Assembly (NCBI GenBank): GCA_037574385.1 | Contig: GCA_037574385.1_4529.1 | Origin: a phage | Reading direction: 5' to 3' (one strand) | Length of the DNA stretch: 64,000 nt | In this document: positions 1,563 to 53,573 of the stretch, in pieces | Position numbering within the stretch: the stretch's first letter is position 1 | How the letters are laid out: the number at the start of each line of letters is the position of its first letter | Made by a program: the position numbers and the translations under genes | Notes under the pieces: generated by a model | The model's input: only the letters and a program-made list of their open reading frames with translations | The model's database searches: none | What the model was told of the DNA's origin: nothing

Positions 1563-1850
1563 TCATTCGACAGGATAAATGTCGGAAGATTCTTCAGTCT
1601 CAATAGTCCCAAGTTCGTCTTTACCATAGATACCTCTGATGTGTAGTTCGCCAAAATAAATGCGGTCTCCTTCTTCAAGATAGTTAGCATCTACCGGCGG
1701 GATTTCAATAACAACTTCGTCGCATTCTAACCAGCCGTAGTGTGCATCACCAGGATGTTTTACCAATTTAGCACAATAAACTGATTTACACTTATGATGA
1801 CCACGAAGATTAGCAATTTTGGATTCTGATACGTCAAATGGATGAATCAT
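1563..1850 (-). CDS. hypothetical protein (95 aa)
   Basis: Track ORF starts with TTG overlapping rIIB; first ATG at 1850 has AGGGG SD just after the rIIB terminator hairpin. Confidence 0.45.
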   Translation of the reverse strand: MIHPFDVSESKIANLRGHHKCKSVYCAKLVKHPGDAHYGWLECDEVVIEIPPVDANYLEEGDRIYFGELHIRGIYGKDELGTIETEESSDIYPVE

Positions 1851-1860
1851 AATTACCCCT

Positions 1861-1885
1861 AAAGAAAAAGGGGACCGAAGTCCCC
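1861..1885 (-). terminator. intrinsic terminator after rIIB
   Basis: Minus strand GGGGAC-TTCG-GTCCCC hairpin followed by TTTTTCTTT. Confidence 0.6.
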
Positions 1886-1890
1886 AATTA

Positions 1891-2826
1891 TTATTCTGCA
1901 AACAATTCAGTAACGTCTGAAATTACTTCATAACGACAAGTACGCATCTTAGCATCACCATAGTCAACTGGGATGGATACAACATCACGTGGATGAACTT
2001 TAACCTTAACAACTTTATCTGAGCTTGAACCAAAGTGGCGAATATAAGATTTAGCACAAACGTGGAGACCACGAGAACAGGTTTGAGTATCATCGTCGTT
2101 AACTCGAGTACGAGGCATTGAAACAACTTTACCTGGGGAGTTATCAAATGTACCACTATAGCAGTCTAAATAGTCCTTACGAACTACTTTCCACGCGTAG
2201 AAATGCCCATCTTCAGTGATTTCAATATCATTTGCAACCAAGAAGTCGAATAAACGTTGTACAGCTTTTTCGCTCGGGTTTTCTAACAGGTTTTCAAGGA
2301 ACGGCAGATAGAATTTAAAGTCTTCGCCTTTTTCCATGGAATCAATAATACGATTAACCAGACCTGAACGAATTTCTATACCTTGATAAAATAAACTACC
2401 ACCTTCAATAGTAACATTACCGTCAACAAACTTAGTAATAGCTTTCTTGACGTTAATAAGTTCAACAGCTTTACTAAGGTTTCCTGCGACCAGATTAGCT
2501 TTAATTTCTTCAAAATTTGCATGACTTGATGGGGTCGCATTGTATGCTACGCGTCCTTCAATGATTGAAATAAATTTAGATGACGCGTTCCATACGATTT
2601 CTGGACGATGTCCGCCGATAATAGGTTCATCATTTTCTGGGATCTGTTCTTCGTCTTCAAATTCAGCTGCTTTCTCTTCAGCTTTAAAATTCTTAACAAT
2701 CTTACGAAGAGTATCTGTTGAAATGTCGAAGTAATCGGCAATTTCTTTACGAGTCCATTTGCCCGATTCAACCAGGCCGTAAGCTTCTAACTGTTCTTCT
2801 TGGGACAAGCATTTAATATTGTACAT
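1891..2826 (-). CDS. rIIB: rIIB protein (membrane-associated lysis-inhibition/Rex-exclusion protein)
   Basis: 311 aa; near-collinear with recalled T4 rIIB (MYNIKCL..., WNAS.KFISI, C-terminal PRDVVSIPVDY..AKMRTCRYEV). Confidence 0.93.
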   Translation of the reverse strand: MYNIKCLSQEEQLEAYGLVESGKWTRKEIADYFDISTDTLRKIVKNFKAEEKAAEFEDEEQIPENDEPIIGGHRPEIVWNASSKFISIIEGRVAYNATPSSHANFEEIKANLVAGNLSKAVELINVKKAITKFVDGNVTIEGGSLFYQGIEIRSGLVNRIIDSMEKGEDFKFYLPFLENLLENPSEKAVQRLFDFLVANDIEITEDGHFYAWKVVRKDYLDCYSGTFDNSPGKVVSMPRTRVNDDDTQTCSRGLHVCAKSYIRHFGSSSDKVVKVKVHPRDVVSIPVDYGDAKMRTCRYEVISDVTELFAE

Positions 2827-2835
2827 AATGTTTCC

Positions 2836-5049
2836 TTATTTGGCCGCTTCCACGGCCTTCATGAATTTAACGATTTGAGCGACTTGTTCTTTAGAAAGAG
2901 TACCACGTCGTCCCATGTATTCTGACACAATATGATAATTGGTTTCGAATTCAATAACCATTTTATCATCATTATCGTAAGCATTATCTTTAAGCTTATC
3001 GAAAATTTTAGCACACAATTCTAACTTTTTATTCAGTTCTCTGTTAGTAGCACCTGAGAATCGATTCCATCCCCAACGATTATTTACCGTTGAGAGTTTT
3101 GCAAAATCTTTACTGATTTCTTTGTTTTTAGAGCTAAAATACTTACTAAGGAAGTTAAGCTCTTCGTTACGAGTAATATGATTCAAATAAGGCTGTGCTC
3201 TACGACTTGGTGATACATACTCATCATAATCCACTTTATCAATTAGCGTAATATAGTCATTAATTGATTTTTCGAACAAGCATTCTACTTCGCCAAGTTT
3301 ACGAACTTTCTTAGCAATCTGTGGACGAACTACAGTGAACTCTTTAATACCTGACAAATCAGCAATACGGGTCAAGAAATTGGAGTCATAGTTCAACCAA
3401 CCTTTATCTGCGTCAAGACATTCAGCATTAGAACGATTACGAACTATAGCATAACCTTGGATTTCATCTGCTTCACTTGCTGGAATAAAGAGGTCTTCTG
3501 ATACCCAAACATCGTTTTCATTCTTAAAGAATCGATGAGCACTTGGCGATTTAGGACGAGGCTCATTAGTCCGTTTCCTGACTTCAATCCATGGCTTAAC
3601 GATTTGTAAAAGCTCTGAAGTCTTGTACATGTTAATGTTGTCGCCGTCAAAGATAACTTTAAGGCGTTCCAGAAGTTTCATTGCATCTTCGTCTGTAGGG
3701 TCAACGAATAGTACGCTTTTACCAAAACCGCGTGGAACTTTACCGGTTAATTTAACCTCGTCTTTAGACATTTCAATTGAATTAAGAGCTCGCATTAATG
3801 GAACGCGTCCCTTAACGTCGTCAATAACAATTTCAACGTTTTTAATGTTAATGCCAATCAGGCTGTTAATTGAAATAGTTGATGATGAGCTACCACTTTC
3901 ACGAATACGACGAAGACGAGGGGATTCAACGATATCGTATACGACGCCAAGATTACACCACTCAGGCCCCATTTTAAAACGTTTATACAACTCAGAATAA
4001 GTTAGTTGTTCTTTAGAGTATTTCAGTGATTCAATATTAGACCCAGCCTTTTCCATGTATTTACGAGCGGTATAGCCAAGAGAATCAATTTCACGGAACA
4101 CATGACGTGGGTATTTACAATCAATCCATTTCTTAGAATCTTCAGCGAACAATTTAGCATCGATTTCTGCAACGCGTTTATGGATATTTGCTACTGTACG
4201 TTTATCAAACGACAATGCTTCACGAGACGGAGCTACATCTAGTTCACCCATAGGGAATTTAATATAAGCTGTAGTGCATCGTGTCATCATCCATGTTTGT
4301 TCTTTAATAACACTTCCGATTGGATAAACAATACCACCATAAACAGCCATGATATTACCACGTTCACCCCGTGGAGCTTCCTTGGCCAAATATACATCGT
4401 CAAATTCTGGGAAGTATTTAATATCTTTAACACCACGAACTTCTGCTATATCACCTAAAGGACGCATAACATATGCAATTTCAGATGCGAACTTTTCAAA
4501 ATCTTCTGGGTTAACCGGTACGACTACTTCTACACCCGTACGGTCATCAGGACCCATCTTATCTACAAAGGTTGGCTTAATTTGAGGACCCGTGTCATCT
4601 TGGTAGATTACGTAACCACGAACTTCACCGTTGTGATAAGACGTAAGGTTAAACGTATCGGTATATGCTAGCGGAGCTTTAGAGCCGAGCCCGAATCCAC
4701 CAATGAAATCGTTGCTCGATGTTTTAGTTGAAGCAAAATATGAGTTATAGATTCCTGGCTCTTCGTCATTACCTCGAATAGTGAAATCACTCATACCAGG
4801 ACCAAAGTCTCGAACTACAAAACGTGGGTCTAAACGACCTGGAGCCTGAACAATAAACTTATCAGTGCAACCGTTAAGAATTTGTCCATCAATACAGTTT
4901 GTGATTAATTCACGTACACAAGCCAATTCTTTGTTTGTATAAAGGTCATTAGACAAAATCTTATAAACTTTGCTATTGCCTTGAATAGTGAATGCTGTAC
5001 TCTTACCGCCTGAACCAATAATCGTTTCTTTAGCCGTTTCAATAATCAT
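2836..5049 (-). CDS. rIIA: rIIA protein (GHKL-type ATPase domain)
   Basis: 737 aa directly upstream of rIIB as in T4; N-terminal GHKL ATPase-like motifs (ELITNCID, DFGPGM, GGFGLGSK). Confidence 0.9.
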   Translation of the reverse strand: MIIETAKETIIGSGGKSTAFTIQGNSKVYKILSNDLYTNKELACVRELITNCIDGQILNGCTDKFIVQAPGRLDPRFVVRDFGPGMSDFTIRGNDEEPGIYNSYFASTKTSSNDFIGGFGLGSKAPLAYTDTFNLTSYHNGEVRGYVIYQDDTGPQIKPTFVDKMGPDDRTGVEVVVPVNPEDFEKFASEIAYVMRPLGDIAEVRGVKDIKYFPEFDDVYLAKEAPRGERGNIMAVYGGIVYPIGSVIKEQTWMMTRCTTAYIKFPMGELDVAPSREALSFDKRTVANIHKRVAEIDAKLFAEDSKKWIDCKYPRHVFREIDSLGYTARKYMEKAGSNIESLKYSKEQLTYSELYKRFKMGPEWCNLGVVYDIVESPRLRRIRESGSSSSTISINSLIGINIKNVEIVIDDVKGRVPLMRALNSIEMSKDEVKLTGKVPRGFGKSVLFVDPTDEDAMKLLERLKVIFDGDNINMYKTSELLQIVKPWIEVRKRTNEPRPKSPSAHRFFKNENDVWVSEDLFIPASEADEIQGYAIVRNRSNAECLDADKGWLNYDSNFLTRIADLSGIKEFTVVRPQIAKKVRKLGEVECLFEKSINDYITLIDKVDYDEYVSPSRRAQPYLNHITRNEELNFLSKYFSSKNKEISKDFAKLSTVNNRWGWNRFSGATNRELNKKLELCAKIFDKLKDNAYDNDDKMVIEFETNYHIVSEYMGRRGTLSKEQVAQIVKFMKAVEAAK

Positions 5050-5354: not shown

Positions 5355-6455
5355 TTACGCTGTGAAGATTTTATCCCACATTGCAACAACTGCATCTCGG
5401 TTATACTTCTTCCATACTGCTTCAGCACGTTTAACTCGAGCTTCGTATGTGTCAGTGAATTCTAATACAGCTTTTGTGTAAAGCGCAACTACTTCTTTCT
5501 TAGGAGTAGAGGAATCAATTTCTACACGCACAGTATCTGGGTCATATTCGAATGTCGCATGCGGATAATCCTTAAAAACTAACTGAATTACAGGGACACC
5601 TTTAGAAATGGCTTCAATAGAACTATTCTCTACCGTACCTGTGTCAGGACACGTATTAATAAGTGCTTTAGCTGTTTTAAGACGTTCCATAATTTCACTG
5701 TGTGGAGCATCAATAATAACAGGATACTTAGCCGGTGGTGCCCATTTACTAGGACAGTATCCTGCGCCATTTTCGCCTAGTGCTTTAATCGCTTCAAGAG
5801 CAACATCAGTACGACGCATTTTAGTGTCATAACGTTGTGCACTAATAATCAGATCAGTCGCCGGAAGAACTTCAGGTTTCTCATTCAAACAAATAACCGG
5901 ATAATCTTCGGCTTCAAACAACGGATTTGCTCGCCAATAATCATAATCAATTTTGTCAGTCAGACCTGAAGTCATATAACAATATTTGCGTTCAAATTCA
6001 CGGAAGGCTTTAGTAGGAGCATAACTCTTACCACCGTTCTTATGAATTTGAATAGTCTGGTCCCAAATTTGAACAATGCCACGAGATACCGGCTCAAACG
6101 GTGTTGCCATAAAATTCTTATGAACTTTAGAGAGACCTGCGTCTTTAATTGCCTGAACGGTTAGTTTAGTCGGTTCCATTGTAACAACGAAATCGTACTC
6201 ATTAATGCCGGCTAGTTCAACAATCTTACGAGCCATAGTATAACTCATACCTAGACTGAATTTAGTCAGATGACCAACAGGATGATGATTAACCTTCCAA
6301 TCACCAAACGTGTCATTATCAAAGCCGATATAATCAATATCAGCACCGATGGACACAAGATATTTCAACACATTTAAATGTACTGCTTCAAGACCACCTT
6401 GTACACGTTCTGGGTTAAACGGGACTGCGCGAGATGGGATAAACATAACTTTCAT
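5355..6455 (-). CDS. GT-B fold glycosyltransferase (GT4-like), candidate DNA sugar transferase
   Basis: 366 aa; C-terminal TGTVENSSIEAISKGVPVI resembles the GT4 E-x7-E/G-PVI donor-binding motif; sits between rIIA.1 and gene 39 where T4 has gene 60/mobA. Confidence 0.65.
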   Translation of the reverse strand: MKVMFIPSRAVPFNPERVQGGLEAVHLNVLKYLVSIGADIDYIGFDNDTFGDWKVNHHPVGHLTKFSLGMSYTMARKIVELAGINEYDFVVTMEPTKLTVQAIKDAGLSKVHKNFMATPFEPVSRGIVQIWDQTIQIHKNGGKSYAPTKAFREFERKYCYMTSGLTDKIDYDYWRANPLFEAEDYPVICLNEKPEVLPATDLIISAQRYDTKMRRTDVALEAIKALGENGAGYCPSKWAPPAKYPVIIDAPHSEIMERLKTAKALINTCPDTGTVENSSIEAISKGVPVIQLVFKDYPHATFEYDPDTVRVEIDSSTPKKEVVALYTKAVLEFTDTYEARVKRAEAVWKKYNRDAVVAMWDKIFTA

Positions 6456-6465: not shown

Positions 6466-6499
6466 TATTAAAATTAAAATGAAGCTCCCGAAGGAGCTT
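6466..6499 (-). terminator. intrinsic terminator after gene 39
   Basis: Minus strand AAGCTCC-TTCG-GGAGCTT hairpin overlapping the gp39 stop, followed by CATTTTAATTTT. Confidence 0.5.
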
Positions 6500-8315: not shown

Positions 8316-8337
8316 GTTGTCTCCTCGTTATGAAGGT

Positions 8338-8364
8338 ATTCTATCATCCGAAATCTAAAGCAAA
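8338..8364 (-). promoter_or_regulatory. middle-type promoter (MotA box TTTGCTTTA, 12-nt spacer, TAGAAT) for gene 39
   Basis: Minus strand TTTGCTTTAGATTTCGGATGATAGAAT; MotA box abuts the T-run of terminator 8355-8380. Confidence 0.45.
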
Positions 8365-8380
8365 AAGGGCCGAAGCCCTT
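8355..8380 (-). terminator. intrinsic terminator
   Basis: Minus strand AAGGGC-TTCG-GCCCTT followed by TTTTGCTTT. Confidence 0.5.
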
Positions 8381-14116: not shown

Positions 14117-14863
14117 TTAACCTTTAACCAATTGGAATAATGATGCGCTAAGTGGTAAGCCACGTTTCAATTTTAATTTACCAATGAAACCAATCTTTTC
14201 AAAACGTTGCAAACCTTGGATAACTTTATCATATGTATCGAAAAGCGATTCAGCGTCAGTTAATTTAGTTTTAGTTTTCCAGTCAGAGCCTTTAAGAAGA
14301 ACGTTGAGTTTAGTAAGTTCATGGCCTTCTGCTTGGTGTGAACCATTAATGCGTGCTTTCAAAGCAACAATTCTAAGTTTAGATTCGTTAGATAAAGGTT
14401 GATTTTTCATCATGTTCGCCATATGCTTAACACGATTTTCACGTTTTGCTCGGATTTTTAAAATAGTACCATAAACCTTTTTAATTTGGGCCCATTTCTT
14501 CTCGTCGAGATTAAGTTTCTCTACTTTACGGACAGAAGGATTAGCGATACGTCTTGCAATGGCATCACGTTTCTCAATAAGTTCTTCTAATGTTAAATCA
14601 GAACGAGCCGTGTTATATTTTTTCTTAACTGGGATAACATTACCTTTAATGTAGCCGATATCGTTATCAAAACGTTCTAAGGATAATTTCTCACCTTCAA
14701 CAGAGTTATTGAAAGATTCACCTGAGTAAGCGCAGACCTTTTGATCAAGAATGTTTTTAAGGTAATTAAAGTCTAAGTTAAAATCCTTAGAGCGTCTCTT
14801 CGCAGAAGCTCTGGTGTGGTCAAGACGACGATTGATTTTGTTAATTTTATTATTTGATAACAT
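14117..14863 (-). CDS. hypothetical basic protein (248 aa; Srd position)
   Basis: ORF with AGAGGAAA SD and early promoter 14913-14940; Lys/Arg-rich; assignment by synteny only. Confidence 0.5.
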   Translation of the reverse strand: MLSNNKINKINRRLDHTRASAKRRSKDFNLDFNYLKNILDQKVCAYSGESFNNSVEGEKLSLERFDNDIGYIKGNVIPVKKKYNTARSDLTLEELIEKRDAIARRIANPSVRKVEKLNLDEKKWAQIKKVYGTILKIRAKRENRVKHMANMMKNQPLSNESKLRIVALKARINGSHQAEGHELTKLNVLLKGSDWKTKTKLTDAESLFDTYDKVIQGLQRFEKIGFIGKLKLKRGLPLSASLFQLVKG

Positions 14864-14912
14864 AATATTTTCCTCTGTCTTACGGACGTTAGGTCATTTA
14901 GCTGATAAGCTT

Positions 14913-14940
14913 ATAATATCATGCCCTCAGGTAGTGTACA
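14913..14940 (-). promoter_or_regulatory. early promoter (TGTACA-N16-TATTAT)
   Basis: Minus strand TGTACACTACCTGAGGGCATGATATTAT. Confidence 0.45.
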
Positions 14941-15016
14941 CTCTTTTTTTCGTAAAATGCTTTAATTTTTTATGTGTTATAATGGTTCTGAGTTCCATCC
15001 GGTTATTCCAATCCAG

Positions 15017-15625
15017 TCAGTAACTGACAATAGTCAGATTCCAGATTGTATAATTTCCATCTTGAATAATAGAATCTACACGCAGTGTAGTCCCTATAGG
15101 GAGCATAAATTCACATTCGTCAGATATAAGTCTAGCATTAGACCGTCTTGTCGCTTCAGGGAAAGCTCCATTGAACTCACAAGACGGCGCAGCCAGAATC
15201 ATATTAAGCATATGTTCACGGAAGTTGAAAGCAAATGGTGCATCTTTGATGCAGAACATATTAAATGTTCCATAAAAATTATATGAAGCAAAGTTACGTG
15301 CTACACCGAACACCGGGCTGAAGCTCATTACTCTGTCAAATTTAATAATACTACCAACGCCTTTATCATCAAGTGTGGCCATAGTTTTCTTAGAGATTCC
15401 ACGATACATTGTCTCAGGAACAGAAGACGACCAATTTCTACGAACAATTGCACTTAAATCTTGTTGGATGCTATCAGGCTTGTTTTCCATACACTGCCAC
15501 AGTATACTTTGTTCAATGTCGCTGAATTGACTATCAATTTCGTACTGCAATACATCTTGATATTCGGGGTTTTGAGCACGACGAACCATTTCTTCAATTT
15601 CACACTCGTTATACGGCATAAACAT
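15017..15625 (-). CDS. ADP-ribosyltransferase (ModA/ModB-like)
   Basis: 202 aa; ART triad candidates YRG, SFS and ECE; size and location as T4 modA/modB. Confidence 0.55.
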   Translation of the reverse strand: MFMPYNECEIEEMVRRAQNPEYQDVLQYEIDSQFSDIEQSILWQCMENKPDSIQQDLSAIVRRNWSSSVPETMYRGISKKTMATLDDKGVGSIIKFDRVMSFSPVFGVARNFASYNFYGTFNMFCIKDAPFAFNFREHMLNMILAAPSCEFNGAFPEATRRSNARLISDECEFMLPIGTTLRVDSIIQDGNYTIWNLTIVSY

Positions 15626-20513: not shown

Positions 20514-21164
20514 TTAACCTCGATTCATAAATGCATTAAATATTTGGTCATCAACAGAAATTTCTAATTCGACTTCAATTGCTTCAGCCTTTTCTTCAGG
20601 TGGTAATTCGTATCCACACACTACAATTTTTTCATCGATATCAAAATATACAGAAGCAATATGATTAATGTTATTTTCAGTTAAGTCTAAATCAACATCA
20701 ACATCTTTTTGACCTACACTTAAAGGATAACTAATACGGGTTATTTTATTATCTTTAACAAAGAGTCCACCAACATACTCTGTACTACGTTTGAAGTTTA
20801 CACGTTTCCGAATTGAAAGATATGATGCATCTTTACCGTGAGCTCGGCTCATAGGACATAATGAATAACTAGAATAAGAGATATCAAATCCTACGCCTTC
20901 AACATGTGCCAGAGTATCATGAGTAAACCAATTATAGTCGTATGCCAAATCCATTAAATTATAATATGTGAACGGAACTGGATTAACGTCATACGTTGTA
21001 CCTTTAAAATCTGCCCAGGCAACGATTTCGTTATCTTTAACAATTACAAAAATTACACCAATATGGTATCCGTTATTATTTTCATTCGGCGTTATATTAT
21101 AACATTGTGCATTAGGAAATTTACCATATTTAAATGGCGCGTTTTTGTGCATATAATAAATCAT
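20514..21164 (-). CDS. hypothetical protein (216 aa)
   Basis: Track ORF (GTG) trimmed to ATG with AGGTGA SD directly after the upstream stop. Confidence 0.5.
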   Translation of the reverse strand: MIYYMHKNAPFKYGKFPNAQCYNITPNENNNGYHIGVIFVIVKDNEIVAWADFKGTTYDVNPVPFTYYNLMDLAYDYNWFTHDTLAHVEGVGFDISYSSYSLCPMSRAHGKDASYLSIRKRVNFKRSTEYVGGLFVKDNKITRISYPLSVGQKDVDVDLDLTENNINHIASVYFDIDEKIVVCGYELPPEEKAEAIEVELEISVDDQIFNAFMNRG

Positions 21165-21165
21165 A

Positions 21166-21459
21166 TTATTCACCTGTGATTTCGGTTACGATATCTTTGT
21201 TATCGAAATTAGGGTCACAATACAAAACATAGTTGTACTGCATGATACCGCCAGACTTAAGTTGTTCAACAACTTTATTAACCATATTAGGACGGTCTCG
21301 TTTAGTGATGTTCATGATATCAGAGAAGATTTGTTGTTCAACATCTTCTTGATTTGCAGTCATTGACCACTCACAGAGGTCTTTATCATAACCTGCTGTA
21401 ACTGGAGCTGGTGCACATGATACTGCAAGTAAGATTGCTGCCAATGATAACTTTTTCAT
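21166..21459 (-). CDS. sp: Spackle-like periplasmic protein (lysozyme inhibitor / superinfection exclusion)
   Basis: 97 aa with signal peptide; mature GYDKDLCEWSMTA...GGIMQYNYVLYCD matches recalled T4 Sp (61.3); early promoter 21489-21517. Confidence 0.6.
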   Translation of the reverse strand: MKKLSLAAILLAVSCAPAPVTAGYDKDLCEWSMTANQEDVEQQIFSDIMNITKRDRPNMVNKVVEQLKSGGIMQYNYVLYCDPNFDNKDIVTEITGE

Positions 21460-26351: not shown

Positions 26352-26900
26352 TTAACGAGCCCATTTGATAATTTCTGTAATCAAATTATTACGTTCGCTT
26401 GCATTAAATCCTATAACTTTGTTAGCACCATCATGATTAAGTAATTGATACGTTTGGATTTTGTTATGAATTGCAAACTCTTCAAAATGTGAAATGACTG
26501 TATTAAAACCGAATGAAGACAAAGTAATAAGGTCGTCTTCAAAACTTTCAGTCATTTCGTTACGTGTTAAAATAATTGTGAACACATCATGGTTTTGGCA
26601 AAGACGAATATAATCCTGTTCATAAACGTCAAGAACCGAGTCCGCATCTTGTCGAATACGTCCATAAACCCAGTTACTAATATATCCACGGTCTAATAGA
26701 TAAATCTTAGTAGGGTCTAAATAATTCAACATCGTTTCGAAACAGCCAACTTCATTTCGAGACTTAACATCGAAACGCCCATCAACTGTTCGTTTAGGGA
26801 AATCAATCTTTACATATCTTTCACTAATTTCCATTATGTCATTAATGAAAGTTGTTTTACCAGCATTATCCGGTCCGTCTACTAAAATAATTTTAGCCAT
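26352..26900 (-). CDS. P-loop nucleotide kinase (thymidylate/dNMP kinase-like)
   Basis: 182 aa; Walker A VDGPDNAGKTT and DRGYIS lid-like motif; at the T4 beta-gt locus between uvsX and 42. Confidence 0.6.
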   Translation of the reverse strand: MAKIILVDGPDNAGKTTFINDIMEISERYVKIDFPKRTVDGRFDVKSRNEVGCFETMLNYLDPTKIYLLDRGYISNWVYGRIRQDADSVLDVYEQDYIRLCQNHDVFTIILTRNEMTESFEDDLITLSSFGFNTVISHFEEFAIHNKIQTYQLLNHDGANKVIGFNASERNNLITEIIKWAR

Positions 26901-26901
26901 T

Positions 26902-27801
26902 TTATTCCTCGATTACGACATCTTCGTATTTAGGTATATTATACGGTGAAGAAATTAAAGCATTAAAGTAGATGAACTCACCAAGACCTGGATGGAATAC
27001 TTCTTCAGGATTTTCGAAATATTGAATCTTCGGACGTCCTTTAAGAATTTGATAGTACTCAGTTTTAGTTGGTTTAAAAATTCGAATCAGCGCTTCTTCA
27101 GGGTACTTATTTCTGTCGAAGCTAATATTTGGATCTGTTATATAAAGCGGTTGGCCTAATTGAATTGCACATTCAACCACTTGTTCAAAACGATAGCACG
27201 GGTCACTAATTCGAAATGGATGAAAAATACCATCTAGATGAATAGGAGCCAAATCACCTACAAGACGCTGCATGATGGAAGGACGTATAACTTTCTGCGT
27301 TACGATAATCTTATTACCATCTGCACCTGCGTTAACCAGCACTTCCTTTTGACGTTCATTCAACACAGTAGTTTGAAGTGAACGATTAACCGACAACATA
27401 TCGGTTTTTAAGAATTCATCAATATAAAAGCGTGGTTTATTAGGGTCTGTAGTGATATTGAAATTGAATTCCACATCAAAAGCGCCATCATATCCAGTGA
27501 TATCTGTGATTAGAAAATCACAATCATAATAAGCAATTAATGAATCAACCACAAATTCATTTTCAGACCAGAAATATTTACGAGTGTTATACGCGTTATC
27601 TTTATACCATAATGGAACAAACTTAAATTCCGGGAAAAGACGTTCACATTCTTTAATATCAGATGCATTACGTGGATATGTAATCACATCACCCGGATTA
27701 GCACGGTGCAAATGAAGTTGGAAGTTGCCATCCTTAAGGATAGCATACTGTCCAGTTTCATAAGACCGCATACTCAAGATTGGTACGCGGAAAATAGCCA
27801 T
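26902..27801 (-). CDS. hypothetical protein (299 aa) at beta-glucosyltransferase locus; candidate DNA-modification enzyme
   Basis: Translationally coupled to gene 42; no similarity to recalled T4 beta-gt; function by synteny only. Confidence 0.55.
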   Translation of the reverse strand: MAIFRVPILSMRSYETGQYAILKDGNFQLHLHRANPGDVITYPRNASDIKECERLFPEFKFVPLWYKDNAYNTRKYFWSENEFVVDSLIAYYDCDFLITDITGYDGAFDVEFNFNITTDPNKPRFYIDEFLKTDMLSVNRSLQTTVLNERQKEVLVNAGADGNKIIVTQKVIRPSIMQRLVGDLAPIHLDGIFHPFRISDPCYRFEQVVECAIQLGQPLYITDPNISFDRNKYPEEALIRIFKPTKTEYYQILKGRPKIQYFENPEEVFHPGLGEFIYFNALISSPYNIPKYEDVVIEE

Positions 27802-28517
27802 TAGTCAAGGAATCCTTTAACATAATCAAAATCACGTTCAAACACATGGGCACTTACCATGGTATGAGTATAATCACCAACTTCTACACCGCATTCGTTA
27901 GCGATATAATGAAGTAATTTTCCTTGGAGATAAAAATCCAACTGCATAACAACAGCACAGTTCTGAGAACGCATATGGCAGTGCGTATAAAGCTTACCAT
28001 CACGAATATAATAAGTAACTGAGTCAGTACATGGATATTCAAGCGTTTCGTCTGAATCAAGCAAAGCCTGATCAGAACTTTCTAGAATTTGGAACACAAC
28101 TCTTCGGGAGTTAGGCTTCTCTTTAAGTTCTTTTAGAAGAGCTGGTAATTGGGCCGCAATGCGAGGACCATAGAAAGTGTTGAAGTTCGCCGGCAAAACA
28201 TCTGATTTTGGTTTAGAAATAAATTTAGCGACATTAGGATATGCCTTAAACGCTTCTTCTGCGTTGGTACCACCAGAAATCATAAACTTCCAGAAGTCTT
28301 CGGCATATTCATAAGAGATGCGGTTAATACGTGGGTCGGTCATTTTGAATGATGATGGAGTGTCAACAACTACTGTCATAGACCCAATTTCATTACAACG
28401 TCCAATACGAGAATCAGTTACGAATTCCGGGTTTTCTAAAATTTCACGATTGACTGCTTTAAATGCGGTTTGAAAATCTGCGGCTTTGATATATTTCATT
28501 GTGTTATGTTTTCCCAT
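27801..28517 (-). CDS. 42: deoxycytidylate 5-hydroxymethyltransferase (thymidylate synthase fold)
   Basis: 238 aa; RRVVFQI...YPCTDSVTYYIRDGKLYTHCHMRSQN parallels T4 gp42 catalytic region; position between uvsX and 43. Confidence 0.8.
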   Translation of the reverse strand: MGKHNTMKYIKAADFQTAFKAVNREILENPEFVTDSRIGRCNEIGSMTVVVDTPSSFKMTDPRINRISYEYAEDFWKFMISGGTNAEEAFKAYPNVAKFISKPKSDVLPANFNTFYGPRIAAQLPALLKELKEKPNSRRVVFQILESSDQALLDSDETLEYPCTDSVTYYIRDGKLYTHCHMRSQNCAVVMQLDFYLQGKLLHYIANECGVEVGDYTHTMVSAHVFERDFDYVKGFLD

Positions 28518-28536
28518 GTTTACCTCAATACAATTT

Positions 28537-28559
28537 ATTATATACTCAATTCGTAAAGC
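28537..28559 (-). promoter_or_regulatory. possible middle-type promoter for gene 42 (imperfect MotA box GCTTTA, 11-nt spacer, TATAAT)
   Basis: Minus strand AAGCTTTACGAATTGAGTATATAAT. Confidence 0.3.
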
Positions 28560-28799
28560 TTATTTGAATTTCTTGACAATGTTGATATAACGTAAAGCTT
28601 CAGCATCGATACTTCCAAGGACACTATGAAGAAATGCATCAGCGTAGTATTCCAATTGAATAGGTTCTTTAATCACTTTAGCCGCTTTGGTTTCAAACAG
28701 GCCCATCAGGGCCTTTTTAAGAATTTGTTCGTTGCTGTTAATTTTCGTAGTCAAAATCTCTTCATTAAGTTGGTGGTTAAAAGTTTTTCTAGAAATCAT
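28560..28799 (-). CDS. hypothetical protein (79 aa)
   Basis: ATGA-coupled to upstream gene. Confidence 0.45.
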   Translation of the reverse strand: MISRKTFNHQLNEEILTTKINSNEQILKKALMGLFETKAAKVIKEPIQLEYYADAFLHSVLGSIDAEALRYINIVKKFK

Positions 28800-29956
28800 T
28801 CCGGGTACCTCAAAGCGTCATCAGAGTTAGTTATATCAATAATAGATATAGAGTTTTCTGCTAACCCATTTTTAGATAATTGACGTTTATAATATCTTTC
28901 ACAATATGTACACGTTGACCCACAGATTTCATTAGCACAATCAAAATCAGGATGTCTGAACCACCTTTTTTCTAAAAAGCCATCTAACAAAGAGGTTTCA
29001 ATATTTACTGTATGTGAAAACTCAGTCTCATTTTCAAGAGTGAAAATAGTCTCTAAAGGCTTCCACAGTTCTAACAAATTACCTTCAAACTTTTCAGAAG
29101 CGTATGCTTCAAGAACTTTCAAAATGTAGTCTGTGCTACCTGTACGTCCTGAAACTTTGAATTGAGTGATACCAATATCATTATAAAGTTTCAAATCTTG
29201 AGGACGAACAAAACGAGTTCTCAACCAGTTAAATGGGTCTGTATCACGAGCTTTAATACAGTGCTGCATTGGATATCCATTTAAGGATTTAGCATCATCA
29301 GCTGTAACATCAGTACTATGGAAAATATAGCAAGAGTCACGATAGCTACAATGTGTTGTATACCCTTTACCAGCATTAGAACAGAACTCATTTACAAGAA
29401 CTTCAAATATTATATTGTTCTTATTGCAAAACTCTGCTGCACGCTTCAGGAAAGAAACTGAACGGTTCTTATGAATTCCACAGCAGACCTTTTTGATATT
29501 ATATTGGTCATGCAAGTATTTGATTTGAGTTACGGCATCGACATGTAGAATTGTTGAAACTTCAATCTCAATATCTTTATTGACTTCACGAACAATTTCC
29601 ATAACAACAGGGTTAGCGATAGTAATACGCCATACGCCTATTGACCAAAGATACTGAACATAATCCTGAATAGCTTTCTTCTTCCACTCAACTAGTTCTC
29701 TTTTTGAACCAGGATTTATCGTGTTGAGTGTATAGTTAAAGCAAATACCTAATTCGTTACAACGTTTAACGTAGTCTTCTAACATCTTTTTGTCAACGTC
29801 AGGAAGCCTAAAATCAGGTCTGGCTGCTACAAAAGCCATTTCTCTTGTAGAGCCATATACTTCGTTTATCAAGCTATTAGGATAGGTTTTATTGAGCTCT
29901 ACGATTTTATCAAGAAGAGCTAAATCAAAATTCGTTCCGATTTTAAAAGTATTCAT
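28796..29956 (-). CDS. Cys-rich putative Fe-S protein (386 aa), unknown function
   Basis: Track ORF (GTG) trimmed to first ATG; Cys cluster VCCG...EFC...EFCSNAGKGYTTHCSYRDSC and C-terminal CGSTCTYC (CX3CX2C). Confidence 0.55.
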   Translation of the reverse strand: MNTFKIGTNFDLALLDKIVELNKTYPNSLINEVYGSTREMAFVAARPDFRLPDVDKKMLEDYVKRCNELGICFNYTLNTINPGSKRELVEWKKKAIQDYVQYLWSIGVWRITIANPVVMEIVREVNKDIEIEVSTILHVDAVTQIKYLHDQYNIKKVCCGIHKNRSVSFLKRAAEFCNKNNIIFEVLVNEFCSNAGKGYTTHCSYRDSCYIFHSTDVTADDAKSLNGYPMQHCIKARDTDPFNWLRTRFVRPQDLKLYNDIGITQFKVSGRTGSTDYILKVLEAYASEKFEGNLLELWKPLETIFTLENETEFSHTVNIETSLLDGFLEKRWFRHPDFDCANEICGSTCTYCERYYKRQLSKNGLAENSISIIDITNSDDALRYPE

Positions 29957-30012
29957 TTTTTTGCATCTCACGTTAATTGATGCGATGGTTTTTGCAGGTC
30001 TTACTTAAATTA

Positions 30013-30399
30013 TTATAGATTCGGTTTATATGATTTAAATGTTTCGAATTCGCCTTTATTCATAAGAGCTTTGAATTCGTCAGGACGCATAGCTTTGTCG
30101 TCGATAATCCAATCATATACTGGTTTATGTGTTAGCAAATTATGGTACTTCAAGCCAATGTTTGCCAAGTTCTGAATCAGACTTGGGAGAATGTCAATTG
30201 CTATACGTCCAGGACCTACTGACTTCATACCACGAGCAGTGTAAAGCGTTATGGTATGCCCTGCATCATACAGGGCATTAATGGCAGACACCATTTCGAC
30301 GTCTGGTTTGAAGTTCACGTAATCGCGATTGTTATTCCATTCTGTGATGCAATCATCGACATCAAAACAAAGATTAAGCATGTTTTCTACACGGTGCAT
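30013..30399 (-). CDS. HAD-superfamily phosphatase (small; start uncertain)
   Basis: N-terminal LCFDVDDCIT (HAD motif I-like), LYTARG, YDWIIDDKA; chosen ATG overlaps upstream stop (TAATG); alternative ATGs at 30414 and 30381. Confidence 0.55.
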   Translation of the reverse strand: MHRVENMLNLCFDVDDCITEWNNNRDYVNFKPDVEMVSAINALYDAGHTITLYTARGMKSVGPGRIAIDILPSLIQNLANIGLKYHNLLTHKPVYDWIIDDKAMRPDEFKALMNKGEFETFKSYKPNL

Positions 30400-32084
30400 T
30401 AGATTTGTTCCCATTGATGAGTGATATCGCCACCGATTGGACGATAAGAAACACCAGTTTCTTTATCAGTTAGTACCCATTTACCAGGATTTTTTGTAAT
30501 CAGAGTAGCCGTTACAGGTTCTGCTACGTCATAACTAATAGAGCCGTCTTGAAGTACACGGCCCATGTTACGTAATTGCTTAGTTAGAAGTTCCATACCT
30601 TTATAATATGCGGCTACCGCTTTAAGTGGATTATTCTTGAAATAACCACCTAATGCAATCCAGATAATTGCCACTGCCAAATGATGATACTCGTTAAACG
30701 AACTCATCTTTCCATATTTGTAAACTAATGGATTGATGTTAATAGTCACATTACAAGTTGTTTCATCAATAATAAACTGGCCCCAGGTCGGATTAGCGTT
30801 GAATTCATCATAACCTGAAACAGCATAAAGCACTTTAGCTTCATCATACAATTTTGGCCCGTAAATCTTGGTTTCACCAAAATATCCACGAGGGTCGATA
30901 AACTTGACTTCGCCGTTATCAGTAATCATAGTATTACTGAAGTTCGGGTCACCGTGAATAACAGAGTACTGTCCCTGAGAACGGTTATGATAACGAATAA
31001 GGTGTTCTAAAGCTTGTTTCAGCATTGGCTTCAGACGTCCAATCTTAGTGTAGTTCACGTGTGTGATTTTACCAAATGAATCAATCAATGGCTGAATGCT
31101 TTCACAACGATCAATAACTTTCGTATAGAACTCTTTAGTGAAATCACGACGAACAGTTTCAGGACTTACAAAATAAATGTCTGTGTTAAATTTCAGTGCA
31201 TCTAAAATTGCATCAATAATTTGTGGACGAGCAAGACTTGATTTGGATTTAATATATTCAAATGCTGGCTTACCTTTAATGCGTTCCATTTCAAAGTTAT
31301 TTTCATTAACAGAAACTAACTGAGGAACTGAATCTGATTTCACTTTCAAATACCATGAAATCTCATCTTTTTGAAGAGCTCGACCTTGTTCAGTTAATGC
31401 GAATTTAGTTACAGTTTCTTCACCAATTTCAACCGCATTAAAACTACGATTAAGTTCACGAACTTCATGAGCTTTTTCAAGTTTAGGCATATCACCAAGG
31501 TCGATGATATTCATAAGCTCTGATTTATTGAATGCGCCGCTGTAAAGGAATTCTACAAAATCACGTCCTTTGCAGTATTCGTGAATTTCCTCATCAGTAG
31601 AACCCATGTAGAATTCCCAGTCTTTGAACTGATAAATTCCTACAACATTACCGCCTGTTGCACCTACATTAGTGATATTTTCACCATCGAAATTATATCG
31701 ACATTCATCACCTTTAACATAGATTGCGTTAACATTCCAAGACCATGAACCAAAATCAGGAATAATATCACACCAGTTAACAACTACGTTATGGCCGTCT
31801 AAATCTTTGTGTAATTTAGCAAGAGCATAAGCAGAACCATACGCTTCATCAACTGTACGAATAGTCACATTGAACCCTTCTTGCTCACAATAAGCTCGAA
31901 CAGTTTCAGCAAATTTTGAATGAACTACTACAATAATTTCATCTGCGCCAAGGTCAGAATAAATTGTATACAAATTGCTCAGAATAGTGTCTTGTTTATA
32001 GTTCACAAGAACTTTTGGAATATGGTGAGTAATTGGATATAAACGAGTTGCCAATCCAGCACCAAGAATAACAGCTTTTTTCAT
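30399..32084 (-). CDS. bifunctional sugar-1-phosphate nucleotidyltransferase / APH-type sugar kinase
   Basis: 561 aa; N-terminus ILGAGLATRLYPIT (RmlA/GlmU-type G-x-G-T-R-L-x-P-x-T); C-terminal VIHGDPNFSNTMI and IDPRGYFG (APH/choline-kinase catalytic loop). Confidence 0.7.
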   Translation of the reverse strand: MKKAVILGAGLATRLYPITHHIPKVLVNYKQDTILSNLYTIYSDLGADEIIVVVHSKFAETVRAYCEQEGFNVTIRTVDEAYGSAYALAKLHKDLDGHNVVVNWCDIIPDFGSWSWNVNAIYVKGDECRYNFDGENITNVGATGGNVVGIYQFKDWEFYMGSTDEEIHEYCKGRDFVEFLYSGAFNKSELMNIIDLGDMPKLEKAHEVRELNRSFNAVEIGEETVTKFALTEQGRALQKDEISWYLKVKSDSVPQLVSVNENNFEMERIKGKPAFEYIKSKSSLARPQIIDAILDALKFNTDIYFVSPETVRRDFTKEFYTKVIDRCESIQPLIDSFGKITHVNYTKIGRLKPMLKQALEHLIRYHNRSQGQYSVIHGDPNFSNTMITDNGEVKFIDPRGYFGETKIYGPKLYDEAKVLYAVSGYDEFNANPTWGQFIIDETTCNVTININPLVYKYGKMSSFNEYHHLAVAIIWIALGGYFKNNPLKAVAAYYKGMELLTKQLRNMGRVLQDGSISYDVAEPVTATLITKNPGKWVLTDKETGVSYRPIGGDITHQWEQI

Positions 32085-32112
32085 GTTGAAGTCCTCATTG
32101 GTAAGTAGGTGT

Positions 32113-32139
32113 ATTGTACACTATTCTAGTTAAAGCATT
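32113..32139 (-). promoter_or_regulatory. middle-type promoter (MotA box ATGCTTTA, 12-nt spacer, TACAAT) upstream of the nucleotidyltransferase/kinase gene
   Basis: Minus strand ATGCTTTAACTAGAATAGTGTACAAT, 25-30 nt upstream of ATG at 32084. Confidence 0.4.
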
Positions 32140-32269
32140 CATACTTTGCCTGTAGACCAATCATAATCCATCCAATTACAAGTGTTGGAATCATTACTGG
32201 AGCCGTTAAGCTCCAGTAGATAGTCATGACAAGCATCAATAGTAAAAGTCCTATTGTTATTGCTTTCAT
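32126..32269 (-). CDS. small hydrophobic peptide (47 aa)
   Basis: Not in track; ATG overlaps the stop of the SIS gene (ATGA); predicted membrane helices. Confidence 0.35.
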   Translation of the reverse strand: MKAITIGLLLLMLVMTIYWSLTAPVMIPTLVIGWIMIGLQAKYECFN

Positions 32270-32901
32270 TGTTCGCCTCGTAACATGGCACCTAGTGCAC
32301 CGCCAGGGTGGAACTTAAGGAAATCATTAGAGGTAAATCCGCGTTCAGACGAAAGGTTGATAGCGAACGTATCGATAAGCGCTAACAACAATGTAGTGGA
32401 CATAGTCGGAGCTAAAGAGTTCTCGTCAACTTCTACCGCGATACCGGTACAGAATGTATAATCAAAAAGAGCTTCGTATTCTTGTGGAATGTCAGGGTTA
32501 CAATGTAACAGAATCTGTTTAACCTGAGGACGAATCATACGAAGATGTTTAGCAACACCTATCATTTCTTCAGTCTTACCAGAACGACTGATGTGAACTA
32601 ATACATCATTAGGTGCAATGAATCCTGCATCACCGTGAGAATAATGCCCAGTGTTCAAATACATGCTAGGAATACCTAGTGAAGCAAAAGTCTCGGAAGC
32701 TTTAGTTGCGATATTAGCGTTCTTACCAACACCTGTAATAATTACACGACTTTCATAATTACTCAGTCCTGGGCGTCGAAGAGTTTCTAGAATAGCATTA
32801 TAACGAGCAGGGTTTTGACTAATTACTTTGGCCATAGCGGCCAAAGAAGAAGCTTGTTTTATGATTGCGTCAATAGCGATAGTGATTGGTGTAGTTTTCA
32901 T
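32266..32901 (-). CDS. SIS-domain sugar-phosphate isomerase (KdsD/GutQ-like arabinose-5-phosphate isomerase, no CBS domains)
   Basis: 211 aa; ITGVGKNANIATKASETFASLGIPS, ISRSGKTEE, LAPTMSTT, FHPGGALG match KdsD SIS-domain motifs. Confidence 0.7.
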   Translation of the reverse strand: MKTTPITIAIDAIIKQASSLAAMAKVISQNPARYNAILETLRRPGLSNYESRVIITGVGKNANIATKASETFASLGIPSMYLNTGHYSHGDAGFIAPNDVLVHISRSGKTEEMIGVAKHLRMIRPQVKQILLHCNPDIPQEYEALFDYTFCTGIAVEVDENSLAPTMSTTLLLALIDTFAINLSSERGFTSNDFLKFHPGGALGAMLRGEQ

Positions 32902-51299: not shown

Positions 51300-51604
51300 T
51301 ATAATGTTCTCTCAAATTTGTGGAAGCATTTACGGCATTTCAATTTCAGGTTATCAGTGGTCCAGTTAACCAATTGAACCTGAATAGTTCCACATTCCGG
51401 ACACGGATGTTTTGCTGCCGATTTGGCAGCATTTTCACGTCGTTCAACCATTTTCATTATTTCGTTCCATGCCGGAGGAACGAACTCTTCTTTACCATGA
51501 ATTTTATCTCGCTGAACAAATTCAATCTTTGAACTATCGTCAATAAACTTAACTAAGCTGTGATTAGTGTTCATATCAATATCCTCTAAAAGACGTAGTT
51601 TCAT
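51299..51604 (-). CDS. zinc-finger protein (101 aa)
   Basis: CPECG...CRKC zinc-ribbon pattern. Confidence 0.5.
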   Translation of the reverse strand: MKLRLLEDIDMNTNHSLVKFIDDSSKIEFVQRDKIHGKEEFVPPAWNEIMKMVERRENAAKSAAKHPCPECGTIQVQLVNWTTDNLKLKCRKCFHKFERTL

Positions 51605-52554
51605 TATAACACCTCAATGGCATTTCGTAAACCATCCGCTTTCGCATTCAGAGCTTTTAACGATTTAGTTTGTTCTTTAATCTGGGCTTCGACTTCTTTC
51701 AGACGAGATTTGAGATATTCACGTTCTTCTCTTAAGTTATCAACTTTTTCTGCTTTAGGCTCTTTAATAGGCTTAGGCTTATACTCGTTAGGGTTCTTCA
51801 GTTTAATTTTAATTCGAGAACTGAATAACATTGAACCGTTATCTTCGGTTTCGTCGAACATTTCAACAACATCCATAGTCTGTAACATCATGCGAAGTTT
51901 ATAAGACAGAGAACGAACGGTTTTATTGTGCTTCTTAATTTCTTCAGCTTTCATGGTACCGAGATTACGTGAGTAGTAATAAGGAACCTGGATATCAATT
52001 GATAACGACGCGGTGCCATTACCAGTTGGTTTGAATACTGCAGTAACCCAATCTTTAACATGAACTTTATTTGTACGATCATCGCCGCCTGTGAATAATT
52101 TACATGAATGTTTAAAAAGCATATTCACTTGGTTATTGAATTCACAAGCAAATTTATCAGCAAATTTAGTTTCAGGAATGGTAGATAACCAATCAGCCAA
52201 ATGAGTCTTTTTAACATCATTAACAATAGTGAATTCAACCAAATCGGTTTTAGATGTCACAGATTTAATAAAGCTCGGCTTCATAAAGTTTTTAATGTTA
52301 TCGCGAGCTACAGTAGAAGATAATAAACGAGAACGTTTGAACCATTGAAGCAGTGTCCCTAATGAATGAGAATACGCATTCTGAGTATCTTTACAGATAT
52401 GATTTTCTTGGCCTGTGTATGTACCAAAATCGCGAAGAATACCACTTACTACATCTCGGTGTGGAACATCAAATCCTAGTGCACCAGTAGCGCGCTGAGC
52501 ATGAACGTTAGCGATAAGACCGGCAAAGTATTCAATGTAATGTGAACGTGTCAT
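51604..52554 (-). CDS. hypothetical protein with C-terminal coiled coil (316 aa)
   Basis: Early promoter 52583-52611; C-terminal heptad-rich segment. Confidence 0.55.
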   Translation of the reverse strand: MTRSHYIEYFAGLIANVHAQRATGALGFDVPHRDVVSGILRDFGTYTGQENHICKDTQNAYSHSLGTLLQWFKRSRLLSSTVARDNIKNFMKPSFIKSVTSKTDLVEFTIVNDVKKTHLADWLSTIPETKFADKFACEFNNQVNMLFKHSCKLFTGGDDRTNKVHVKDWVTAVFKPTGNGTASLSIDIQVPYYYSRNLGTMKAEEIKKHNKTVRSLSYKLRMMLQTMDVVEMFDETEDNGSMLFSSRIKIKLKNPNEYKPKPIKEPKAEKVDNLREEREYLKSRLKEVEAQIKEQTKSLKALNAKADGLRNAIEVL

Positions 52555-52582
52555 AATATTTTCCTCTCGTTAAGATAGATTC

Positions 52583-52611
52583 ATTATACTCCAACCATCC
52601 TTGGTTGTAAA
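52583..52611 (-). promoter_or_regulatory. early promoter (GTTTACA-N17-TATAAT), CCAAGGATGG-spacer family
   Basis: Minus strand GTTTACAACCAAGGATGGTTGGAGTATAAT. Confidence 0.55.
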
Positions 52612-52616
52612 CTGAT

Positions 52617-53573
52617 TTATGATTTTAATGCATTCATTGCGTTAAAAAGTTTAGAGTACTGCAACTGGAGATTGGTCACCACCTGTTGAGCATCACGAAG
52701 CTTAGCTTGTGCCTTATCAAGTTCAACAGACAGTTGGTCTACAGTAGCCTTGATTTGATTGTAATGATAATCTTCAGCCGGAAGAAGGTCATTAGAAACA
52801 TTTAGTTTTGCTGCCGACAGTTTGCACACATTTGGCAAACCTTTAAACATACCAGATTGTGCTGGAGAATATGCGCCTAGAACCTCTGCATTACCGACTG
52901 GTGTTGATGTAATATTGCCTTCGAACGTTGCATTTTCCTTTTTAAGATTTTTATAATATTCAGAGTCTTTGTGCCACCATGGTGCAGGAACCTTTTTACC
53001 AATAGATACACGAGCCTGGATAGCGATATGGCCCTTATTCTTGATAGGGTCGATAATATTAAGCTCACGAGAATAAATTGCTTTAATCTGGTGGATATTA
53101 TCACCTAAAACTTCCAACGCTTGGTGGAATACACGAGCAACGTTATCATTCTTAGGTTTATACGTAAGAGTGAACTCGTTCTCACTGATAACCATGGTTT
53201 CTAACTTATCGTAAGTATATTTCAAATGCTTCATGTTAATTGCTTGAGGACGAATACGAGAAGCAATGGCCATCAGATTGTTAAGGTTATTTCTGAACTG
53301 TTTAGCAAAATATTGTCCATAACCGCCAATACAAAAATTACGAAGTTTCTGTTTGGCCAGTAAACGACTGAACTCACCGTTTTTAATGAACTCTTTAACG
53401 GGTGTGTTAGTAACACATTCAAATTGAGTAAACTTACGAGAAGTAATCCCATAATATGAACAGATTTCCTCAATCTCTTCAGGAGTCTTTACAGGCATAC
53501 GGATAGGATTAGGTCCTGGAGTATATGCGTTCGAGGTAAATTCTTTGATAAGTTCTCTACGTGTAATAGCCAT
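52617..53573 (-). CDS. hypothetical protein with C-terminal coiled coil (318 aa)
   Basis: Track ORF trimmed to ATG (MAITRREL...) with GAGGAA SD; early promoter 53601-53629. Confidence 0.55.
   Translation of the reverse strand: MAITRRELIKEFTSNAYTPGPNPIRMPVKTPEEIEEICSYYGITSRKFTQFECVTNTPVKEFIKNGEFSRLLAKQKLRNFCIGGYGQYFAKQFRNNLNNLMAIASRIRPQAINMKHLKYTYDKLETMVISENEFTLTYKPKNDNVARVFHQALEVLGDNIHQIKAIYSRELNIIDPIKNKGHIAIQARVSIGKKVPAPWWHKDSEYYKNLKKENATFEGNITSTPVGNAEVLGAYSPAQSGMFKGLPNVCKLSAAKLNVSNDLLPAEDYHYNQIKATVDQLSVELDKAQAKLRDAQQVVTNLQLQYSKLFNAMNALKS

Follow-up and report, generated by a model that had tools for sequence, protein, structure and literature searches.

A GT-B glycosyltransferase between rIIA.1 and gene 39 of a Mosigvirus as a putative second transferase of DNA arabinosylation

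The 64,000-nucleotide stretch of phage DNA analyzed here (GenBank assembly GCA_037574385.1, contig GCA_037574385.1_4529.1; hereafter the window) encodes a 366-residue protein between rIIA.1 and gene 39, where the T4 reference has the order rIIA, rIIA.1, 60, 60.1, mobA, 39. A first-pass annotation, made from the sequence without database searches, proposed that this protein transfers a sugar to hydroxymethylcytosine (hmC) in DNA. Which sugar does it transfer, to which base, and at which step? Our analyses made it near certain that the open reading frame (ORF) encodes a glycosyltransferase (GT) of the arabinosylation pathway. They indicated that it is probably the second, chain-extending arabinofuranosyltransferase, with uridine diphosphate (UDP)-arabinofuranose (UDP-Araf) as donor and mono-arabinosylated 5-hydroxycytosine (5hoC) in DNA as acceptor. 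The gene is already known, having been proposed in 2018, crystallized as an ortholog and assigned a role in the literature, and what we report is annotation rather than discovery.

The DNA of the region was 98–98.6% identical to many Mosigvirus (RB69-like) genomes, and the source of the window is a Mosigvirus, i.e., an RB69-like phage. Thomas et al. (2018) reported arabinose in RB69 DNA and used custom hidden Markov models and HHpred to propose ORF003c as the arabinosyltransferase, noting its remote HHpred similarity to the T4 alpha-glucosyltransferase (alpha-gt) (PMC6024577). Lee et al. (2026) identified the RB69 base as 5hoC, showed that the thymidylate synthase (TS) homolog gp48 makes 5-hydroxydeoxycytidine monophosphate (5-hydroxy-dCMP), and described the modification as beta-D-Araf-(1-3)-alpha-D-Araf on O5 of cytosine. 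They proposed gp46:47 as the first transferase and listed gp3 (ORF003c) as “beta-arabinosyltransferase 2” (PMC13326640). The DNA of the Mosigvirus NicPhage contains 5-ara-dC and 5-ara-ara-dC, and Mosigviruses are stated to encode two putative arabinosyltransferases that act one after the other, the first gene being part of the sugar cassette and the second lying between rIIA and the gene for the topoisomerase (PMC13390438); in our comparison NicPhage DNA was 98.6% identical to the window. Two other phages, Bas46 and Bas47, are doubly arabinosylated (PMC12923530). A further paper, citing earlier work, describes a Bas46 mutant without the arabinosyltransferase Aat as viable and sensitized to a defence system, and treats that mutant alongside secondary glucosyltransferases (PMC13216743). 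Aat of Bas46/Bas47 is probably the counterpart of the gene studied here.

Arabinosylated 5hoC is a recently defined DNA hypermodification of phages. It shields Mosigviruses, a frequent choice of candidates for phage therapy, against restriction enzymes, CRISPR-Cas and DNA glycosylases. How many arabinoses are attached alters which defences are evaded or triggered, and the gene between rIIA.1 and gene 39 most likely sets whether there is one or two.

Identity, family and fold of the protein

The ORF starts with ATG, and the segment that the first-pass annotation had quoted as a donor-binding motif, TGTVENSSIEAISKGVPVI, was present at residues 272–290 of its product. Over all 366 residues the protein was 99.2% identical to RB69 ORF003c (gp3, NP_861693.1), and it was 97.5% identical to the product of a Bas47 gene annotated as “putative hmC-arabinosyltransferase”. 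The profile phrog_8302 matched residues 1–366 (E = 1.6e-222). Two crystal structure entries, PDB 9iqz and 9ir0, were 98% identical to it over the full length (E = 2.6e-248 for 9iqz); the structure library labels 9iqz as “phage HY126 glycosyltransferase” in the apo form and 9ir0 as the form with UDP (release 2025-07-16). The corresponding protein of the HY126 genome is XAN60436.1, with which 9iqz has the HY126 strain-specific residues in common and from which it differs at just two residues. Seven substitutions separate the window's protein from 9iqz (E16D, N56T, N85H, Y160H, G164A, A231V and S315F), none of them inside the conserved TGTVENSSIEAISKGVPV segment. In the deposited HY126 genome the ORF (1744–2844, minus strand) encodes L288/G289, where 9iqz and all other Mosigviruses have P288/V289 within the conserved GVPV motif; an error in sequencing that genome probably accounts for the difference.

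Full-length similarity, Mosigvirus synteny and co-occurrence with the sugar cassette all placed the protein in the RB69 ORF003c/HY126 GT family (phrog_8302). The gene has the same position between rIIA.1 and gene 39 in Bas47, HY126 and WFbE185, and RB69 ORF003c and the HY126 GT share with it both this position and an accompanying cassette that is 97–99.7% identical. The family was identified in 212 phage records, comprising about 156 from Mosigvirus (at least 95% identity), 55 from Acinetobacter T4-like phages (about 42%, two copies each) and one from a Tegunavirus, a distant homolog outside the Mosigvirus and Acinetobacter-phage groups. In a set of 5.8 billion proteins it accounted for 5 clusters. 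When 1.84 billion representatives were searched exhaustively with HMMER, only about 10 related clusters were retrieved, and no bacterial relatives except for one weak C-terminal match (E = 5e-5). Family members carry older labels such as “DNA alpha-glucosyltransferase” in HX01 and Acinetobacter phages, and the labels “hypothetical protein” and “alpha-glucosyltransferase” in about 200 phage records need updating.

In two Mosigviruses, JK45 (MK962757.1) and LH01 (PP434429.1), the GT gene matched in two pieces, annotated as two hypothetical proteins, with match spans of 1601 bp in JK45 (versus 1098) and 1097 bp in LH01. Natural disruption or faulty assembly may explain this; if the disruptions are real, only mono-arabinose is predicted in such phages.

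The GT-B fold and the binding of UDP are already established via the 98%-identical HY126 protein. The protein has two Rossmann-like domains, and it is the C-terminal one that binds the nucleotide sugar. Hence the fold check that the first-pass annotation had proposed was answered by the HY126 crystals, and its call of a GT-B enzyme of a DNA-modification pathway was borne out by those structures, apo and with UDP, and by the Acinetobacter homologs encoded inside the cassette. Its description of the donor motif as GT4-like held at the level of the fold, but not at that of sequence families. A Pfam scan of the ORF (E up to 1) gave no family match, a scan of six family members (E up to 10) gave no match to a GT family, and a family profile searched against PDB sequences retrieved no GT other than 9iqz. 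The EX7E motif is a feature of the GT4 C-terminal domain. E281 of the protein (in EAISKGVPV) aligned with the second glutamate of this motif; the position of the first glutamate, eight residues upstream, was occupied in the family by an invariant G273, and an invariant E276 lay five residues upstream of E281. We rejected GT4 membership by sequence because no Pfam GT4 profile (PF00534, PF13439) matched and EX7E was not kept. On present evidence the protein is GT4-like at the fold level only and should not be filed in GT4.

The nearest structural neighbors were retaining GT4-type enzymes (WaaG, PimA, BshA and BGluT), and sequence identity to bacterial GT-B enzymes of this retaining type (PimA 2gej, BshA 3mbo/6n1x, WaaG, BGluT and GtfA) was 8–14%. 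The T4 enzymes alpha-gt (GT72, PDB 1xv5/1y6f) and beta-glucosyltransferase (beta-gt, GT63) resemble the protein in their GT-B fold, UDP-sugar donor and modification of phage DNA cytosines. However, they had no HMMER-detectable sequence similarity to it, and their acceptor is hmC, as opposed to 5hoC in the window's phage. Neither by sequence nor as closest fold was the protein related to alpha-gt or beta-gt. No other window ORF that was scanned had a Pfam GT match, in agreement with the earlier statement that the window has no T4-type alpha-gt or beta-gt.

The sugar cassette and a chain-extending role

The nucleoside diphosphate-sugar cassette, which the first-pass annotation had correctly placed about 25 kb away, was at 26352–32901, i.e., 20–27 kb from the GT gene, and was 97–99.7% identical to RB69 gp44–55 (Table 1). 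Its proteins matched the HY126 PDB deposition series, namely the hydroxylase/TS homolog (9iqc/9iqu/9ir2) and the phosphatase (9iqw). The RB69 split genes 46/47 and 52/53 were intact single ORFs in the window (299 and 561 residues), which lends support to the published interpretation of the RB69 splits as sequencing errors.

The cassette contains a second GT-B protein. The first-pass annotation had overlooked it, and had regarded the protein studied here as the best candidate for lack of another transferase. The cassette GT (RB69 gp46:47, DLP3 gp79, Thanatos TH1_063) had no detectable sequence similarity to the family of RB69 ORF003c as represented in the window (BLASTP E = 2.1), and the two proteins differ in length (299 versus 366 residues). 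The cassette GT was itself without a sequence-detectable GT signature. It occurred in 349 phage records from many genera, including Shewanella phage Thanatos-1, Serratia LC53, Dhakavirus, and Klebsiella, Yersinia and Proteus phages, and in more than 139 clusters among 5.8 billion proteins. It is the conserved GT across all arabinosylating phages. In the named phages, which have the cassette GT only, we found no homolog of the ORF003c/HY126 family.

The number of family members followed the length of the arabinose chain, with 0, 1 and 2 copies corresponding to mono-, di- and tri-arabinosylated phages. Thanatos is mono-arabinosylated and has a single arabinosyltransferase (PMC13326640). One family copy accompanied mono- and di-arabinose in RB69, NicPhage, Bas46 and Bas47, and two copies accompanied tri-arabinose in the DLP3-type Acinetobacter phages. 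DLP3 gp76 and gp77 (Maestro gp77 and gp78; arabinosyltransferases 2 and 3) belong to the same family, with 41–43% identity over the full length and the GT-B fold. Together, and with UDP-Araf as donor, they attach a third arabinose to RB69 DNA, and they extend arabinose chains on phage DNA (PMC13326640). They differ from the window's protein in being two cassette-internal paralogs, both of which are reportedly required for the third arabinose, whereas Mosigviruses have one such gene, about 21 kb away from the cassette.

In the Acinetobacter phage Maestro both homologs are encoded within the cassette, where they immediately follow the genes for the kinase, the cassette GT and the TS homolog, and the Maestro cassette genes map one-to-one onto those of the window, except that the U32-peptidase-like gene of the window has no counterpart in the Maestro cassette. 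The window's protein was 43% identical to Maestro gp78 and 41% identical to gp77, while gp78 and gp77 were 56% identical to each other. Step-specific orthology to one of the Acinetobacter paralogs was rejected because the protein was equidistant from both.

Because copy number follows chain length, because the cassette GT occurs universally and suffices in a mono-arabinosylated phage while the ORF003c/HY126 family is accessory, and because the Acinetobacter members extend chains on DNA, we favor a second, chain-extending role for the protein. We infer the step catalyzed, the use of DNA as acceptor and the stereochemical course from these comparisons. In this pathway deoxycytidine is replaced by 5-hydroxydeoxycytidine, made as a mononucleotide by the TS homolog, and UDP-D-arabinofuranose is built by the isomerase, the bifunctional kinase/pyrophosphorylase and the HAD phosphatase. 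The first alpha-arabinofuranose is most likely attached to the base, at O5, by the cassette GT. It is then most likely on this mono-arabinosylated DNA that the protein studied here acts, and it would transfer a second arabinofuranose from UDP-Araf onto O3 of the first. The product would be beta-Araf-(1-3)-alpha-Araf-O5-cytosine, as in RB69-type DNA, and the second arabinose would widen the escape of the phage from host nucleases and glycosylases.

Phages T2 and T6 have a beta-1,6-glucosyl-alpha-glucose transferase that makes gentiobiosyl-hmC (cited in PMC13390438). We liken the two enzymes by function alone: each would be a second, non-universal transferase that extends the sugar already present on a DNA cytosine by another one, giving a mixture of mono- and di-glycosylated bases. 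They differ in sugar (glucose versus arabinofuranose), donor (UDP-glucose versus UDP-Araf) and base (hmC versus 5hoC).

Alternative acceptors and steps

Could the protein instead be the initiating enzyme, placing the first arabinose on 5hoC in replicated DNA, with the cassette GT acting elsewhere, for example on the mononucleotide or as the second transferase? ORF003c was the arabinosyltransferase proposed by Thomas et al. in 2018 (PMC6024577), the Bas47 label is of the same kind, and it is the ortholog of this protein that was crystallized with UDP in the HY126 pathway study. In addition, the gene for the cassette GT is translationally coupled to those for the 5-hydroxy-dCMP synthase and the nucleotide kinase, which suits a job at the nucleotide level, and the DLP3 cassette GT, when assayed by itself, did not modify 5hoC-DNA (PMC13326640). 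The three genes are tightly packed (26352–28517), since stop and start overlap by 1 nt at 27801 and a single nucleotide at 26901 separates the other two. The order is the same in Maestro (gp81-80-79), and the packing could hint that the first arabinosylation takes place on the nucleotide. Against an initiating role, phages with arabinosylated cytosine but without the family exist (Thanatos-1, Serratia LC53 and many others), and the family is therefore not needed for the first transfer. Moreover, 0, 1 and 2 copies match 1, 2 and 3 arabinoses, the DLP3 paralogs lengthen existing arabinose chains on DNA (PMC13326640), and two recent papers give the protein the second step (PMC13326640, PMC13390438). 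We consider the initiating role, the main alternative, unlikely.

The other two alternatives concern the acceptor. A T4-style transferase of glucose or another sugar onto hmC, close to what the first-pass annotation had in mind, would suit the genome position in a T4-like phage, the older “DNA alpha-glucosyltransferase” labels (HX01, Acinetobacter phages) and the remote HHpred similarity to T4 alpha-gt (PMC6024577). The hmC reading is wrong for the window's phage because the TS homolog is 99.2% identical to RB69 gp48, experimentally shown to be a 5-hydroxy-dCMP synthase; judged by this sequence match, the acceptor base is 5hoC, not hmC. Furthermore, the assignment of arabinosyl-hmC to RB69 was retracted in later work (PMC13326640, PMC13390438), and the cassette product is UDP-arabinofuranose, not UDP-glucose, so that we attach practically no probability to transfer onto hmC. 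A non-DNA acceptor, such as a nucleotide, a host envelope glycan or a protein, with an indirect link to DNA modification, would agree with the nearest structures being GT4-type enzymes that act on lipopolysaccharide, lipids or small molecules (WaaG, PimA, BshA, BGluT) and with the gene being outside the cassette in Mosigvirus. Yet the Acinetobacter phage homologs are encoded within the cassette, DNA is the substrate of the DLP3 paralogs (PMC13326640), and the family is confined to T4-like phages that arabinosylate their DNA, only about 10 clusters having been retrieved from 1.84 billion representatives. We thus regard a non-DNA acceptor as highly improbable.

Several observations weigh against the chain-extending role. 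Single DLP3 GTs, the cassette type included, were inactive on 5hoC-DNA in vitro, and the authors could not decide between DNA and the mononucleotide as the acceptor of the first arabinose (PMC13326640). The assignment of the protein and its RB69 and HY126 orthologs to the second step draws on comparative inference and secondary citations. That the HY126 authors crystallized the ortholog of this protein and not the cassette GT could mean that it is the principal transferase in their view. The closest structures are of retaining GT4-type enzymes, yet the second linkage in RB69 DNA was reported as beta. Lastly, the AlphaFold model (6-sequence alignment) was moderate, with a predicted local distance difference test (pLDDT) score of 62, a poor N-domain and values below 50 at residues 115–188; we based the fold assignment on the near-identical crystal entry rather than on this model.

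Two further arrangements are conceivable. The protein may be a GT4-like GT-B scaffold that makes the beta-(1-3)-arabinofuranosyl linkage by inversion from alpha-configured UDP-D-Araf, or it may be the sole true DNA-level GT of Mosigviruses, the cassette GT acting on the mononucleotide before replication. We hold it doubtful that one or the other applies; either would break with the T4 paradigm, where DNA receives all of its sugars after replication.

Neighboring genes, transcription signals and other features of the window

The features of the locus and of the cassette are collected in Table 1. The gene 39 product matched phrog_543 over its full length and phrog_7229 over residues 452–605, so that gp39-like and gp60-like parts are both present and the gene is unsplit. 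The first-pass annotation had put the GT gene between rIIA.1 and an unsplit gene 39, in place of the T4 genes 60 and mobA, and both the T4 reference and these profile matches agree with it.

Table 1. Coordinates of the GT gene, its neighbors, nearby hairpins and the genes of the sugar cassette in the window.
Feature	Position	Strand	Evidence and remarks
rIIA	2836..5049		beyond rIIA.1 on the downstream side of the GT gene
rIIA.1, 66 residues	5062..5262	minus	downstream neighbor of the GT gene; Pfam PF24210 T4_RIIA1, E = 2.1e-30
Strong stem-loop	5283..5343	minus	11-bp outer arms GGCACTATTAC/GTAATAGTGCC; in the 92-nt spacer from the GT stop to the rIIA.1 start
GT-B glycosyltransferase, 366 residues	5355..6455	minus	ortholog of RB69 ORF003c/gp3 and the HY126 GT (PDB 9iqz/9ir0); putative second (chain-extending) DNA arabinofuranosyltransferase
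Terminator-like hairpin and T-run	6482..6499	minus	AAGCTCCTTCGGGAGCTT CATTTTAATTTT; consensus scan; overlaps the stop codon of gene 39 and precedes the GT start codon by 26 nt
Gene 39, unsplit topoisomerase II large subunit, 605 residues	6498..8315	minus	upstream neighbor of the GT gene; DNA_gyraseB, HATPase_c, TOPRIM_C; phrog_543, E = 7.7e-287
Thymidylate-kinase-like nucleotide kinase (RB69 gp45)	26352..26900	minus	phrog_761, E = 2.6e-45; 98.4% to RB69p045, 43% to Maestro gp79; directly downstream of the cassette GT
Cassette GT, 299 residues, GT-B fold (RB69 gp46:47)	26902..27801	minus	probable first (alpha) arabinosyltransferase on 5hoC
TS homolog, 5-hydroxy-dCMP synthase (RB69 gp48)	27801..28517	minus	PF00303; PDB 9iqc/9ir2, E = 7.9e-161; 99.2% to RB69p048
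U32-peptidase-like protein (RB69 gp50)	28796..29971	minus	PF01136, E = 7e-11; phrog_5757
HAD-type phosphatase (RB69 gp51, HY126 AfhF-like)	30013..30414	minus	Araf-1,5-bisphosphate to Araf-1-phosphate; PDB 9iqw, E = 7.8e-88; PMC13326640
Bifunctional nucleoside triphosphate (NTP)-transferase and kinase, 561 residues (RB69 gp52:53, AfhE-like)	30399..32084	minus	makes UDP-arabinofuranose; NTP_transferase N-terminus, APH/kinase-like C-terminus; 97–98% to RB69p053/p052; PMC13326640
Arabinose-5-phosphate isomerase (RB69 gp55)	32266..32901	minus	SIS domain; phrog_5670, E = 2.6e-116

The GT gene had been credited in the first-pass annotation with a terminator of its own. A consensus scan found no terminator downstream of the ORF; the sole canonical hairpin with a T-run that it found near the GT gene was the one upstream, at the end of gene 39; the counterpart of this hairpin in phage WFbE185 (98.6% identical) carries a terminator annotation from ARNOLD. 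The stem-loop between the GT gene and rIIA.1 had a minimum free energy of -28.5 kcal/mol (z = -4.12), and none of 200 shuffled sequences folded equally well. It was without a T-tract and was not called by the terminator scan; owing to the missing T-tract, it is not a canonical intrinsic terminator.

Scans for late (TATAAATA), MotA-box and sigma-70 motifs upstream of the GT gene gave no match. Upstream of gene 39 we identified a MotA-box-like TTTTGCTTTA at 8365, followed by TAGAAT (8336–8365, minus strand), consistent with a T4-type middle promoter for a unit of gene 39 and the GT gene. Gene 39 is the probable co-transcription partner of the GT gene. Because no promoter motif was found between the hairpin and the GT start, expression of the GT must, judging from these scans, come from read-through past the hairpin or from a promoter within gene 39.

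Elsewhere in the window, four ORFs of 316–338 residues on the minus strand (51604–56692) matched only PHROG families of unknown function or DUF7235, with no Pfam GT signal. The minus-strand region 14117–15625 encodes two host-takeover proteins, an Srd-like anti-sigma factor (248 residues) and an Alt/ModA-like RNA polymerase ADP-ribosylase fragment (202 residues). A DenB-like DNA endonuclease IV was identified at 1070–1690 on the minus strand (phrog_1360, E = 8e-90), as expected where a phage replaces cytosine and degrades cytosine-containing DNA. The minus strand also encodes AdfA, anti-DarT factor A (20514–21173; PF23813, E = 6e-120), a counter-defence protein against the DarTG toxin-antitoxin system.

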